A stretch of DNA of 64,000 nucleotides from Bacteroidales bacterium (GCA_017548125.1 JAFYNK010000079.1:20180-84179), one strand, 5' to 3'; counted from the stretch's first letter, positions 44,089 to 54,710 are shown. Notes: generated by a model not told the origin, from the sequence alone. Made by a program: numbers and translations.

Positions 44089-47000
44089 TTATTTATTACT
44101 TAAAAATATAGAACGCAACAAGCTATAACTGAATGGGAATATAACCTTTTCCTCAAAGTGCGGCTTATAATAATAAGGCAGTATTTCTCCTGGAACAATC
44201 TCGTATATATCGCCGATTATATAAACGAACCCTCTTTCAACCTCAGCTGCTCTTAACAGATAAGTATAGTTATAATCAGGAAATTCTGGCAGCTCTGCAC
44301 GAATCTCTTCCAAACTAGTATTTTTAAATTCCAATCCTCTTTGATTGATTATATTATCTGCGAATTTAGAATTAGTTACGTATGATGCCAATATACGTTC
44401 TGCAACACATGCCAACATCTTCAAATCAAGGCCAAAGTCTTTAAACTTCAATGTTTTCAAAAACGGTTGTCCGCTAAACCAACATCCGAATCCATGCGCA
44501 ATGAAAGATGTAACCGCATGTCCTATCTCTTTATTCTCATAACCTTTCATCAGACATTGAAAATATGCGTTACCGTATCCATCGTCATAATATGGCGGAT
44601 CATAACATTCTTCATTCAAGAAATCCGGCGTATCAAAACATGCGTTCATGAAGCCCCATACCAGAGCATTTCCCATGCCATAATGCGCCGACGTTTTAAT
44701 GCTATTCCAATCATCACCACTGAACTTGAAACTTCCATCACCCAACGACACCATCTTATTGACACCAGATGTGATTCCGCCCATTGCAGTATAAACTCCA
44801 ACTTGAAGAAGCCACGACTGTCCAAGCGTATATTCCGTCAAAAAGCCTTTAACGAAACCAACGCCAAACAACAAACCGAACTCCGCAAAAGAATCGATAT
44901 TTTGCGCATTTAAAAGCACATTAGCCGCTCCGCCGACAACTCCCATAACAACACTTTGTATCACTTCTCCAGAAGGGTCATTATACCTCAGCGGATTATT
45001 CATGCAATAACTATATCTATTAAAATTCTGTGACATCTGAGGCATCTGAATATTATTATCAGGACTCAACATCATAGACATCAACGGATCATAGACTCTT
45101 CCATTCATATTTATCAATCCAAAACCAAGAAGATGCTCATGCCCAGTATAGCCTCTATCATATAACAATGATTGCTTATCACAACAAGCCGTCCAATCAT
45201 CAAAATCCCGAATATTACCCCAAGCATCAAAGCTCACTTCTTGAACTATTTCAGACCGCTCATCCGTGATAACATTCCAAGAACCAATATTATCTTTATG
45301 AACATAATTATATGATTTACATCCATCTTCATCTAAGGCGCACACAGCAAAAACACCACACGGCCCGTCTATATATGTGTAGATACATCTCTTCCCACCT
45401 TCTTCAACAATCTCGCAATTACCTGCATACGTTTTGGTCTTCAGTTCGCCACCGACCTGCATCTTCATATAGATTCTATTATTATCATAACCATAATTTA
45501 TATGTGCAAAATCATCGCCTCTCGTTATACTCAACAAATCATCAAACGACGAATAATTTGTTTTCTGGCTTAATCCTAAAAACACATCATCAGCATCTGT
45601 CTTCGCCTTAACAATAGCATTAGGTCGTTGTGTATCATACACAGTAGAATAAATAAGTCTAACCCCATTGACTTCTTTTCCAACAATATTACCCAAATTA
45701 TCATACTGCATTTTTGCAGTTTCAACGCCATTCAATCTAATTCCAAGCAATCTATCCAAATCATCATATTCAAACTCTTCAACGACATTAGTTCCCGTTG
45801 ACTTTTTTCTAGATACCATATTGCCGAAATCGTCGTAATGATAACCTAAGTCCTGTATCACTTCATTTTGGCTTTTGGTTATAATGTTTTTCAGAAAAAA
45901 CGTTTGGGGATCATACATATACCTGGTTTCAACTCCATTTCCAAACGTACATTCCGTCACAAGACCATTTGCATTAATTTCATCAGTCTTCCACAACACT
46001 TTATTGTCATCTGCATCTTTTATTTCTTTTTCATAACCCGAATTTGAATATAATGTTGATATTGTCAATCCAGATGGATATGTGGTTGAAGAGACCCGAC
46101 TTGCCTTATCATATTTGTATGATGTTCTATACTCTTCACCATTTATTATTTCAACAGACTCAATCATACGTAAATATTTATCATAGGTATAACTAATGCT
46201 ATGGTTTTCAGATGTTACAATCTTATTCAACACACCATTTTCACCTTTTTCAACACCATACATCCAATGTGTTATAACCTCATTTTTAGAAGCACCGTCT
46301 TTTACCTTTTTCGACACCATTCTTCCTGCAACATCGTATTCTAATTCCATCACACCATCTTTAGGATTCATTATTTTTACAATATTACCAAACGCATCAT
46401 ATTCATAAGACACGGAACCATAATTCGGGTCATATAATGACTTTCTATTTCTTCGACCATCATACGTTACAGTAATCTTTGTCTTTGAATTATCACCTAC
46501 TTGAGCTGATTTCATCAGGCCATCACTATAATATTCATATTTTACAACATTACCAGCCATCTCTTCTGTTTCCACCAGCCAATTCATATAATTATATGTA
46601 TTAATTCTTAAACGTCTTGCGCCGTCTCTTCCTATTATTCCTGTAACAATGGTATTTCCATTATACGAAGTTGTTGTTAAAACATTATTCGGATGTTTTG
46701 TCTGAACATTTCTATTATATTTATCATACTCGTGCGTAACATATTGTTTTTCTTCACTTTCACGATATGGCAAACTTTGCCGTTCCACATTACCGAAATC
46801 ATCATAATATTTATCCACAAAAATTGCATTTCCATTCATATCAAAGGTAACATTCCTCAACTCAGCACCTGATTTATGATAAAAAACCATTTTCTCTGCG
46901 TTGCCTGTACCTTTTTCCCAGCTATAAAACAAAGCTCCTGAAGGCGCGTATTTATTACCTGACGCCCATCTCAATGCGCTTGCATTTTGCAATCCATCTG

Positions 47001-50000
47001 GCAAGACAATCATATCCGTCACTCCTGCATGATCATTCTCGCTCAATGTTACAAAACCATTATAATCTATTGTAGAAATCAGCAAACCATAATCATCATC
47101 ATAAATACAATTTGTCTCACGTCCCAATTCATCAATCGTCTTTATTCTATATCTATACGAGTCATCATATTCATTTCTTATAGTTTTCTTATGACTAAAT
47201 GATGGCGACGATTTTGTCATTGAAACCATATTACCGACTTTATCATAATCATATTCCACGTTGACCATAAGAGGATCTGAATAATCTTCATTAATATTAG
47301 GCAGCTGTATTTCCCTTATTATATTTTTTGGAAACTTATCATCATACACGAATACCTTTGCTGAACCAATAACATCATCATTGCCAGCATGAGTAATTTC
47401 ATATATTTTCGCAGGTCTATTTATTATCCAGTTGCTCAAATCATCTTTATATACCACATATTCCTCTTTAATATACTGGCAATCGTCAGGCTTCACAGCC
47501 ATAATATCGTTTGTACATCCAACAGATTTACGTTCAAGCCAAACCAATTTATCATACGAATTATTAGAATTATTATCAGAGCGATATATATTATCTGTAA
47601 TTGTCACTTTCTGAACTTCCTGCTCTTTATCCAGATTATAATTCACATTGTAAATGTTTTTTATCAATGGAAGAATCACTTTGTCATTCAATTTACAGAC
47701 ATAATTATCATACACATAAAACTCTTCTTCAACCAATTGATTTTCTCCATAATACAAACCCATTGAAGACGGCAAGCAACACGCAAAAGCGCCCATTGAT
47801 TTATAGTCAAAATTCTGCATTTGTTTTTTAACAACATTACCATTGATATAAATTTTTGTCACCACTCTCTCAAATCCCATAAATCCATGGCCTTTAGTAT
47901 GAATCAAAGCATTACGATATTCATATTTTGTAACTATTGCTTTTTCATTGACATCAAACACTGTATCAGACTTTAATGCTGCAACAGGAACTGAACTTTT
48001 TCTAATATCATTAGCAACGACATTATCACATGAATAAAATCCATCCTCTTGCTTTTTCCTTTTCATAAGATAATCATAAGAAAAGCCTCTTGCGTTTCCC
48101 ATTCCATCAACAATTCGTTCAACGCTATAATATGCAGAATGCGAATACAATGAAGTTATATATGCCTGTTGCGAACTCAATGGATTCCGTGGCAATCCTG
48201 ACAAAATAGAAACATTTTCCTGAGGCAGAAATCTTCCTATCTGAATTGTTTGATGAGAATAATTTATCGGCATATAATATCTTTCATTACAAGTAAAGTC
48301 TATAGTATTGTCAGATTTCACAAATGGCAATAATCCCACTTCAAGAAAATGATTTCCAGCCATATTTTTAAAAACCCCGACATCAGCTACGCCATCACCG
48401 TCAAAGTCGGCAGTTCTAATCGTGACATTAGGCTTTTCATATTCTCTTAAAGAATACCGGTATCTATCTTTTGCATTTAATGTTATCGTTCTTAGCAAAC
48501 TCGTATTTGAACACGACATCGGACTTGTAAAGCCATTTCCTTTTGAATAGACAATATTCCAGAACCGATTGGGATCATAATAAAGTATATCAACTTTTCC
48601 ATCACCGTTAAAGTCATTTGCAAACGGATAAATATCTTTGGTTATAGATGTCCCTCTAGTAAACAATTCGAGGCCATAATTCTTATTTATGAATATCTTA
48701 TAAACCTCATATCCATCGTTCTTCAACGCCATTATTTCTGATATCCCATCACCTGTAACATCCATTGCAAGAAAGTCCGCATCAATACCATTAATTGCAC
48801 TGCTTCCATTCAACGATATTTTCGAGAACACATCGTTTATGTAATAAATATATGAAGCAGTTTTATTATTATTACCGCCATCATAAGCATCTAATACAAT
48901 CACGCCGTTCCTATCATTTAAAAACCTTCCTAACAACAGAACCACATTATTTTTGTATGAATAAGAAACCTTTTTGACAAACTCGCCTTTTTCTGCAATA
49001 TAAAAATTTGTCACAGCTACAACATCATCTGAATACTGAGCATTACGGTTAATGTCATAAGTAATAATATCATCCACCCCGTCATCATTCAAATCTACCA
49101 CATATATCCATTCCAGTTCTTTTGACAAACAAACTGTTGTTTTTGGTGTTTGTTGAAATGTTCCATCCCCATTATTAAGATAAACCTCCCCTTTTACATC
49201 ATCAGGGTATGTATCTTGTATTTTATATGGTACCATAAGAACGTCAGAAAAGCCATCTCCGTCAAAATCACCGACAAAAGGAACCTTATTAAACACATTC
49301 TTATCAAGCTGGTATATTTGAAAATCTTCACCATGACTAGGATAATGCTTTTCCTCTGTATTCCATATTATTCTAGTCGGATTTATTTTATCCTCTCCAA
49401 CAGCTAATCCCAGAGACTTCAATCGATAATGAGCGAAATATGTTTTACCGTATCGGCCTGGCTCATTGTATTCAAGCGAATAATCATAAAGTTTTTTTCC
49501 TGTATAATTGTTTATTATCTGTACATTTTTCAATATTCTTTTACAAGACACTTTATTGCCATAAACGTATGATACAGACATGTCAAACTTCTTTTTCTCA
49601 TACACAAACAATATTTTATAAGCCGGCTTTATGCCACATTTTTCATTGCATGTATATTCAATATTATTAATGTACGACTCTCCCTCAACCACATTTTTAT
49701 CATAATTGAATATTATTGCATTTCCATTTCTGTCCGACACTTTACTCAGCAGCCATTTAAGTATCACCTTATTGTTATTCTGCGTCTCGATTCGGGAATC
49801 TTTCGTCGATCCATATTCCCATATTGTGCCATCGCTCTTCCACACTTTAAAACATTCCGGACTCTGGCTGTTGGAATAAGAGACTATCTTATCAAAATTA
49901 TCAATTTCGGTCTTATATTCGGCATTATCACCTCCATACTCACCACTGACCAGCATCAATCTCTGCCCGTCCATTACAAACCTGTCATTAACAAAATCTA

Positions 50001-54588: not shown

Positions 54589-54702
54589 AATAAAATAATT
54601 TTTGGTAGTTTTTAATTTGGTTCTTTTTCTGTTCGAATAAAAATCATAAAACAATCATAATCAACACCTCCTTCCTGCAAATTTGTTCTAGTTTTTACGC
54701 TA

Positions 54703-54710
54703 CAAATATA
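54703..54710 (-). promoter_or_regulatory. -7 box (TAtaTTTG on minus strand) upstream of the five-gene Rhs operon
   Basis: Reverse complement of caaatata. The only such box I saw between pyrB and the lipoprotein gene on this strand. Confidence 0.4.

Follow-up and report, generated by a model that had tools for sequence, protein, structure and literature searches.

A large, unnamed and dedicated family of small proteins, each joining a single Rhs-type YD repeat to a type IX secretion system (T9SS) sorting domain, travels with SpvB-Rhs genes, and the member that led us to it is encoded in a five-gene block of a Bacteroidales bacterium. The block occupies part of a 64,000-nucleotide (nt) stretch of genomic DNA (GCA_017548125.1, JAFYNK010000079.1:20180-84179), hereafter the window, with positions counted from its first letter. 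Its genes encode a lipoprotein, a protein of 499 amino acids (aa) ending in a type-A T9SS C-terminal domain (CTD), a fibre-like protein, a 145-aa mini-protein that also ends in a CTD, and a 2138-aa protein resembling a fused TcB-TcC cocoon of toxin complex (Tc) toxins. That Rhs genes may lie beside genes for T9SS cargo is already known, and what is new is the widespread, undescribed and adaptor-like family linked to SpvB-Rhs genes, which we call the YD-CTD family. As defined here, its members are ~130-165 aa long and start with a signal peptide, which is followed by one [FY]xYDxxGNR hairpin and then, after a linker of 25-40 aa, by a type-A CTD; the window protein has this layout.

To characterize the mini-protein, we combined family models, alignments and structure prediction. 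An earlier annotation made by a model from this DNA alone (the original prediction) had described it as a T9SS-CTD mini-protein, and its type-A CTD was indeed detected (Por_Secre_tail / TIGR04183, 5e-11); the alignments additionally revealed an invariant single YD repeat that this annotation had missed, such that the FRYDDSGNR directly after the signal peptide is a YD (Rhs) repeat. The first-round homologs (n=33) were all 132-153 aa long, with Y32, D33, G36 and N37 unchanged throughout and R38 kept in all or nearly all, and the same layout was found in distant small open reading frames (ORFs) with FEYDNAGNR in locus L035, YTYDEAGNR in L048 and YEYDAGGNR in L053, a locus of Dysgonomonas sp. 216. 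A profile of the family matched at least 571 clusters at E <= 1e-3, and the best 120 were all 108-165 aa long and, if named at source, bore only the names "T9SS type A sorting domain-containing protein" or "hypothetical protein". In every member that was inspected a signal peptide was present, with the [FY]xYDxxGNR motif no more than about 10 residues from its cleavage site, and 25-40 aa of low-complexity linker led from there to the CTD. The AlphaFold2 model, built on a 41-sequence alignment, showed strands at residues 26-32 and 38-45, disorder at 50-66 (predicted local distance difference test, pLDDT, below 50) and, at 70-144, a CTD sandwich modelled with confidence. Cysteines flank the hairpin on both sides, as C27 and C46 in the window protein and also in some distant members.

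Evaluating the gene neighbourhoods from the mini-protein side, we counted 13 mutually distant contexts of mini-protein genes, which revealed an SpvB/FG-GAP/Rhs gene within three genes of the mini-protein gene in 11. The 11 are the window clade (lipoprotein, CTD protein, fibre, mini-protein, Rhs, the mini-protein gene lying 12 nt upstream of Rhs); L035 (fibre, mini-protein, Rhs, 116 aa); L053 (fibre, mini-protein, Rhs, 178 aa, 151 aa); L048 (fibre, Rhs, 138 aa, mini-protein); L095 (fibre, Rhs, 380 aa, mini-protein); L099 (mini-protein, 116 aa, fibre, Rhs); and L091, L093, L097, L098 and L101 (mini-protein, Rhs). L045 and L100 had mini-protein and fibre genes and no Rhs gene in view. The fibre gene adjoined the Rhs or the mini-protein gene in most linked contexts, and likewise in L057, such that the association of an Rhs protein with T9SS-tagged proteins and a fibre, proposed originally from the window, recurs in distant Bacteroidota. 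In one branch a gene for a CTD-bearing peptidase comes after that for the mini-protein: the mini-protein gene of L095 is followed by a gene for a CTD-bearing, gingipain-type Peptidase_C25 (9001-11936), and a similar large ORF follows that of L045 (18482-20303), where the Rhs gene is missing and the fibre gene lies 8 kb away.

The Rhs protein of the window possesses the TcB-TcC-like architecture that had been recognised in it, with SpvB domain, propeller, YD shell and Rhs core all found. The family models put forward for checking were detected by Pfam and NCBIfam, in the 2138-aa protein as SpvB (3e-15), FG-GAP_3 (9e-16), RHS_repeat (2e-15, with YD_repeat_2x) and Rhs_assc_core (1e-12) and in the two CTD proteins as Por_Secre_tail, while TcdB_toxin_midN fell slightly below its Pfam cut-off (21.4 versus 24.8 bits). 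Four of the five DxDGDGxxD calcium loops that had been reported were recovered by a strict regular expression, and the fifth appeared only on a relaxed reading. The motif PLRYNDPSGE stands at aa 1838, and the N-terminus, MRMKLICAMLIVLTLSSNIDS followed by Q, reads as a typical Sec signal. Pfam and NCBIfam found no CTD, PAAR or prePAAR domain in the protein, and neither integrase, transposase, TcA, VgrG, PAAR nor Hcp was found within 10 kb of the block or, by domain scan, among ten further large ORFs of the window, in agreement with the original prediction that the protein lacks a CTD of its own, that PAAR, TcA and type VI secretion system (T6SS) partners do not adjoin it and that the block carries no mobile-element genes. 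The layout of type-A T9SS cargo, a Sec signal with a C-terminal CTD, was seen in the 499-aa and 145-aa proteins and not in the Rhs protein, the fibre or the lipoprotein.

Compared with known systems, the protein is most like TcB-TcC of Tc (ABC) toxins, such as Photorhabdus TcdB2-TccC3 and fused BC proteins, with which it shares the SpvB domain, the FG-GAP propeller and the YD shell, and likewise an Rhs core with an autoproteolysis motif and a variable payload enclosed within. It differs from them in its Sec signal, in having no TcA pentamer beside it, in an orphan payload that is not of the ADP-ribosyltransferase type, in its fibre and T9SS-tagged partners and in its phylum, Bacteroidota. Because no TcA is near and a Sec signal is present, it falls outside the definition of a Tc toxin, and because it has neither PAAR nor VgrG, it also falls outside that of a T6SS effector. 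An ordinary Tc BC subunit or T6SS Rhs effector, with its TcA or VgrG/PAAR partner encoded elsewhere and the CTD neighbours incidental, would share the observed architecture; we regard this as very improbable, as cytoplasmic Tc and T6SS cargo lacks a Sec signal, the protein has no PAAR or prePAAR domain, no TcA or T6SS gene was found within 10 kb or among the large ORFs scanned in the window, and the neighbours are conserved across Bacteroidota orders.

Comparable gene pairs have been reported previously. In Porphyromonas gingivalis 381/ATCC 33277, genes for a lipoprotein (PGN_1816), an 84-kDa CTD antigen (PGN_1817, PG93) and an Rhs protein (PGN_1818) are up-regulated during surface translocation, and the PxxxxDPxGE consensus was reported for P. 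gingivalis Rhs proteins also (PMC6775972). In Apibacter, most SpvB/TcdB-type rhs genes adjoin genes with type-A sorting domains (PMC8125069). These loci resemble ours in that genes for a lipoprotein and a CTD cargo protein stand immediately upstream of a large, ABC-toxin-like Rhs gene, and the authors suspected a T9SS link; their papers differ in that they describe neither a YD-CTD mini-protein nor a fibre and tested no mechanism. PGN_1817 was considered as a mini-protein and rejected, being the 84-kDa CTD antigen. A 2026 preprint still called the Rhs-T9SS link only apparent. The original prediction, which could not map the block to a described system, was therefore right in that we found no mechanism in the literature and wrong in that the adjacency of Rhs and T9SS-cargo genes had already been reported (PMC6775972, PMC8125069). 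In the literature outside subscription-only papers, we found no description of the YD-CTD family, of its link to the fibre or of a mechanism.

We read the block, with confidence that we would put at about even, as a fast-evolving chromosomal operon, passed on vertically in a Candidatus Limimorpha-like lineage of gut Bacteroidales, that couples a Sec-exported cocoon to the T9SS via separate partners. The original prediction of a surface-displayed, T9SS-dependent Rhs-cocoon delivery module is partly supported: the conserved gene unit, the cocoon architecture and the recurrent linkage are borne out, and T9SS dependence and surface display are predicted. The C-terminus of an Rhs protein is cut and enclosed in the shell and a T9SS signal must be a folded C-terminal domain, so the cocoon cannot carry a CTD of its own. 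The mini-protein consists only of hairpin, linker and CTD and is encoded beside cocoons across orders, and we think it best explained as a partner that would recognise the YD sheet. All secreted proteins of the operon would cross the inner membrane by Sec, after which the mini-protein would provide its CTD in trans, its YD hairpin, sometimes stapled by cysteines, docking on the YD sheet of the Rhs protein by strand complementation; a similar joining of sheets occurs between TcB and TcC. A flexible linker of ~25 aa would then lead to the type-A CTD, which would engage PorV and SprA. PorU cleaves off type-A CTDs, and the C-terminus thus exposed becomes linked to anionic lipopolysaccharide; the short stub left in this way could tether the cocoon to the surface. 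Alternatively, or in addition, the mini-protein may escort the cocoon outwards. The trimeric, YadA-head-like fibre, served by a lipoprotein of its own and by the 500-aa CTD protein, would contact the target, and a glycine-zipper segment would insert the payload into a membrane. More tentatively, and with somewhat less than even confidence, we propose that one Rhs-type hairpin clips onto the SpvB/Rhs shell and lends it a CTD, that cocoons with sealed C-termini are thus exported by the T9SS or anchored to lipopolysaccharide, and that together with the YadA-like fibre this may amount to phylum-wide, contact-dependent delivery without TcA or T6SS. Conceptually, such an adaptor would resemble Lap1/Lap2 of LXG toxins of the type VIIb secretion system and the Eag/PAAR/VgrG adaptors of the T6SS, where a separate small protein supplies the targeting signal, with no homology between them. 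We know of no trans-acting secretion-signal partner shown for the T9SS.

Several observations weigh against this adaptor proposal. A folded cocoon of the TcB-TcC type is ~100 Angstrom wide and the SprA pore ~70 Angstrom, which makes piggy-back export of a folded shell physically doubtful. The fibre, mini-protein and Rhs trio is not obligate, since the mini-proteins of L045 and L100 have no Rhs gene in view and L091 and L093 have no fibre. Docking of the mini-protein on the Rhs protein is something that we infer, and co-transcription of the five genes is plausible from their spacing. The CTD neighbour of the P. gingivalis Rhs gene is the 84-kDa antigen and not a mini-protein, and a 2023 review of T9SS effectors mentions no hitch-hiking substrate.

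The difference in size also makes release by vesicles or lysis a serious rival, even if we judge it unlikely overall. In such a case the genes would be related and the cocoon would exit without the T9SS, from the periplasm into outer-membrane vesicles or by lysis, with the CTD proteins and the fibre being separately exported accessories for adhesion, cocoon capture or regulation. The Rhs protein having a Sec signal only and no CTD, its probable excess width for SprA and the loose coupling of the trio in the four loci just named all fit this reading. Tc toxins are released by holin/endolysin systems; however, no lysis cassette was found in the operon or its 10-kb flanks, and an invariant YD hairpin on a sorting signal is hard to explain unless it recognises a YD-repeat protein.

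On how the numerous SpvB/TcdB-type Rhs proteins of Bacteroidota get out of the cell, the papers of 2019-2026 only remark on the adjacency with T9SS genes, which "warrants further investigation". A dedicated family that pairs a YD hairpin with a CTD and accompanies these genes across orders makes the remark open to a precise experiment with a small genetic target. If the mini-protein is an adaptor, the rule that every T9SS substrate bears its own CTD would need extending, Rhs cocoons would have a third delivery route beside TcA and T6SS, and a portable tag could be at hand for displaying large cargo on Bacteroidota.

Turning to what the cocoon may deliver, we found that the 292-aa payload is an orphan, which just 7 of 1.84 billion representative proteins matched. 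They consisted of one full-length ortholog, four short fragments and two weak matches to other FG-GAP/Rhs proteins, whose similarity was confined to the first ~110 aa, and sequence and profile searches, with Pfam also run on nine C-terminal orthologs, returned no Pfam or PDB relatives. The payload is colinear across the clade with no swapping of tips, its conserved segments have a glycine-zipper look (e.g. GVVGGAANV and GLLFGVGFVKG), and its distal part drifts and is shorter in L013-L016. Because the conserved part is a hydrophobic glycine-zipper segment, membrane insertion would be the likeliest activity. A catalytic Cys/His pair in AHGFGCWFSG was considered and rejected, as it is lost in the L013-L016 branch.

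The lineage departs from the polymorphic-toxin pattern that its distant relatives keep, having a fixed orphan tip without a downstream immunity gene. In the ten clade loci examined, 50-58 nt separate the Rhs stop codon from argS and no immunity gene lies downstream, and a hidden immunity gene overlapping or antisense to the Rhs 3' end was dropped as a candidate because the ORFs there are not conserved between orthologs. Polymorphic Rhs toxin-immunity loci share with the window protein the Rhs core with its PxxxxDPxGE boundary, and the window clade differs from them in its unswapped tip, in having no immunity gene following and in having no PAAR, VgrG or Eag partner. This is contrary to the distant relatives, of which L035, L048, L053, L091, L098 and L101 possess a small immunity-like ORF downstream of Rhs, with a colicin-E5-like nuclease as the Rhs tip in L098 and AHH in L101. 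Since no immunity gene follows Rhs in the clade, the target is probably something other than a sibling cell, and an immunity-less orphan payload in a clade abundant in herbivore and human gut points to a non-kin target, which is relevant to gut ecology.

It could be that the cocoon is no longer antibacterial here, having become a fixed surface or adhesion structure or a toxin against eukaryotes (gut protozoa, fungi or host cells). Such a role would explain the non-polymorphic orphan tip and the missing immunity gene, and the colinear, nearly unmatched payload, the short gap to argS without a conserved overlapping ORF, the nuclease-type tips and downstream small ORFs of distant relatives and the fixed chromosomal site of the cassette are all in its favour. 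We nevertheless consider it improbable, as the autoproteolysis motif and Rhs core are intact, so the payload is still released inside the shell, and the cassette diverges far faster than its flanks, like conflict genes; immunity could moreover be encoded elsewhere or by the operon lipoprotein.

The fibre protein, described originally as Hep_Hag-like, belongs to a large family (1874 hits), in which conservation among close relatives is high. Its signal peptide precedes an invariant GCDLCGP, a YadA-head-like beta-roll (~aa 35-130) and a middle part that is beta-rich, and its C-terminal module (aa 229-331, HLPDMPSE...LLKKIEELTLY; 50974-51285) ends in a long helix in the model. The assignment as a Hep_Hag-like fibre was weakly supported for the window protein, where the family profile matched YadA/UspA1 heads at E 0.005-0.01, whereas longer relatives clearly matched YadA_head (4e-16); 6 of 14 relatives gave YadA_head hits that were below threshold, as was the window fibre itself. 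The fibre family shows beta-roll similarity to the head repeats of trimeric autotransporter adhesins (YadA, UspA1, Ata, EmaA), from which the window fibre differs in having no barrel translocator and in its ~100-aa Bacteroidota-specific module, for which there is no curated family and whose end is a coiled coil. The fibre, whose modelled C-terminus is helical, matched neither a CTD nor an autotransporter beta-barrel (YadA_anchor). With neither of them at hand for crossing the outer membrane, its constant CTD-bearing neighbour is suspected of a role in that step.

The C-terminal module is itself widespread, with at least 583 stretches in species-representative genomes and no Pfam or NCBIfam model, and its best 80 loci spread across Bacteroidota (Flavobacterium, Spirosoma, Chitinophaga, Tenacibaculum, Pedobacter and Dysgonomonas), most of them not beside Rhs. 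Its consensus reads W.D.VF...HLP.(I/M)PS...LLKK(I/V)EELTLY plus a coiled coil, and L019-L090 are among its loci. A Foldseek search with the fibre model (pLDDT 69) against PDB gave nothing significant (best E 0.44, to trimeric spikes), which is uninformative because a monomer model of a probable trimer was used. In PHROGs the fibre matched only a family of unknown function, and a phage tail-fibre origin was dropped after tblastn against 50,697 phage records gave no match.

Of the remaining two proteins, the lipoprotein, recognised as such from the start, carries the lipobox FVSC and has invariant C26 and K28, and it had no Pfam, NCBIfam, PHROG or PDB relative. The 499-aa protein likewise has the predicted type-A CTD (Por_Secre_tail / TIGR04183, 8e-8); against solved structures only this domain matched (8glj_D, 8glk_D), and the body had no PDB match. 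A glutamine stands at the predicted +1 position of the 499-aa protein (SS/QQW, the slash marking cleavage), the fibre (KA/QEK), the mini-protein (NA/QNC) and the Rhs protein (DS/QNL), and it is invariant in the alignments of the 500-aa CTD protein (Q20), the fibre (Q25) and the mini-protein (Q25). Under the Q-rule of Bacteroidota, Gln at +1 is usual for substrates of signal peptidase I.

Two modules that meet at the fibre make up the operon, one of lipoprotein, 500-aa CTD protein and fibre and the other of fibre, mini-protein and SpvB/propeller/Rhs protein, as each module occurs apart from the other. The lipoprotein and the 500-aa CTD protein accompany the fibre and not Rhs, both being present without Rhs in L023 and L040, and L018 has the 500-aa CTD protein with the fibre and no Rhs gene in view. 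L012 conversely holds fibre, mini-protein and Rhs genes only, those for the lipoprotein and the 500-aa CTD protein being missing. Several features of these loci are worth recording for themselves. In L018 (79-11675), from Candidatus Limimorpha equi, the 500-aa CTD protein and a 445-aa YadA-head fibre are encoded directly upstream of ruvA and a 2484-aa SprA, the translocon of the T9SS. The Rhs-free L040 (2934-13393) and L023 (5263-9051) encode longer fibres of 810 and 529 aa, respectively, and downstream of them large secreted proteins without assigned function, including more CTD proteins and a second short fibre-tail protein.

Within the clade, the block is long established, and it changes much faster than its flanks, as surface and conflict genes do. 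An identical Rhs protein was found on eight metagenome contigs of one study series, and the cassette occupies the same site between pyrBI and argS in L001-L017, such that the five genes recur as the conserved unit that had been proposed. L011-L017, found by a fibre scan of one genome per species, are seven metagenome-assembled genomes of Bacteroidales and Candidatus Limimorpha from goat, buffalo, horse and human gut, with the cassette followed by argS. Comparison with L005/L008 gave identities of 90-93% for ArgS, 65-75% for the fibre, 51-54% for Rhs, 47-55% for the lipoprotein, 41-42% for the 500-aa CTD protein and 40-49% for the mini-protein. Comparison with L011-L017 gave identities of 79-97% for ArgS, 53-73% for the fibre, 33-64% for the lipoprotein, 27-64% for the 500-aa CTD protein, 28-47% for the mini-protein and, for Rhs, 39-66% over the N-domain, propeller and shell and 26-57% over the C-terminal domain. 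Taken together, the cassette proteins had 24-75% identity in this clade. Because the block keeps its site in the clade while diverging much faster than its neighbours, it is not a recently acquired island. Apparent strain variation of genes 1 and 2 in L002-L004 was dismissed, as only start-codon calls differ.

At the level of the locus, all five same-strand ORFs of the original prediction were reproduced at the same coordinates and with the same gaps of 12, 18, 18 and 12 nt, in gene order (Table 1). Flank annotation placed argS at one end of the block and pyrBI, followed by DUF3467 and rpoC, at the other, in line with the predicted position between argS and pyrBI, and its lower guanine-plus-cytosine content, earlier judged by eye, was borne out by counting (0.29-0.375 versus 0.38-0.42 in the flanks). 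The single TAnnTTTG box noted upstream is present and overlaps the best sigma-70-like site; the motif itself is not enriched, with 91 matches in the window versus 76.6 +/- 8.5 expected, with further copies inside the ORFs and one before argS (44057-44064). Among the five genes the only terminator-like site was a single weak match inside the fibre ORF, and there was none between the Rhs gene and argS. A 72-aa ORF (54612-54830, minus strand), called in every copy of the locus, was set aside as probably spurious, being an AT-rich, low-complexity frame across the putative promoter. On the pyrB strand, a GC-rich hairpin with a T-run (54891-54909, plus strand) lies 57 nt 5' of the pyrB start, with an A-run on its opposite side, and may act as an attenuator in the pyrBI leader or as a bidirectional terminator insulating the divergent operons.

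Table 1. Genes, protein regions and candidate promoter of the five-gene block, in window positions.
Feature	Positions	Strand	Description
Gene 1, lipoprotein	53500-54588	-	362 aa; ATG start; lipobox FVS/C
Gene 2, CTD protein	51988-53487	-	499 aa; secreted; ~400 aa of no recognised fold, then type-A T9SS CTD (aa 424-499)
Gene 3, fibre	50974-51969	-	331 aa; signal peptide
Gene 4, YD-CTD mini-protein	50518-50955	-	145 aa
Mini-protein, single YD-repeat beta-hairpin	50821-50880	-	aa 26-45; FRYDDSGNR between C27 and C46; alignments and AlphaFold2 model
Mini-protein, type-A T9SS CTD	50524-50742	-	aa 72-144; Pfam/NCBIfam and model
Gene 5, fused TcB-TcC-like protein	44089-50505	-	2138 aa; Sec signal; SpvB, FG-GAP propeller, YD shell, Rhs core, C-terminal payload
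Gene 5, SpvB domain	49675-50196	-	aa 104-277; Pfam
Gene 5, FG-GAP/VCBS beta-propeller region	48370-49275	-	aa ~411-712; calcium-loop motifs; Pfam and motif search
Gene 5, Rhs-associated core	44968-45228	-	aa 1760-1846; ends PLRYNDPSG/E, predicted autoproteolysis site; NCBIfam and motif
Gene 5, post-cleavage payload	44092-44967	-	aa 1847-2138; orphan; aa ~1847-1925 conserved, Gly-rich, glycine-zipper-like, hydrophobic; distal part variable
Candidate operon promoter	54703-54733	-	TTGACA-17-TATATT overlapping Bacteroidota -7 box TATATTTG (54703-54710); best promoter-like match on the minus strand, 43800-55000

Elsewhere in the window, an M14 carboxypeptidase of 846 aa in which CarboxypepD_reg and PKD are combined with a type-A T9SS sorting domain (27994-30534, minus strand) is a second, unrelated cargo, and together with sprA in the relative L018 it indicates that the organism uses the T9SS. 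Three ORFs on the minus strand, of 706 aa (7030-9150), 409 aa (9317-10546) and 396 aa (34278-35468), matched no Pfam family at E <= 1e-5. The pairing of a sulfatase gene with one for a radical-SAM/SPASM maturase of the anSME type (37647-40365, minus strand) is typical of glycan-foraging gut Bacteroidales.

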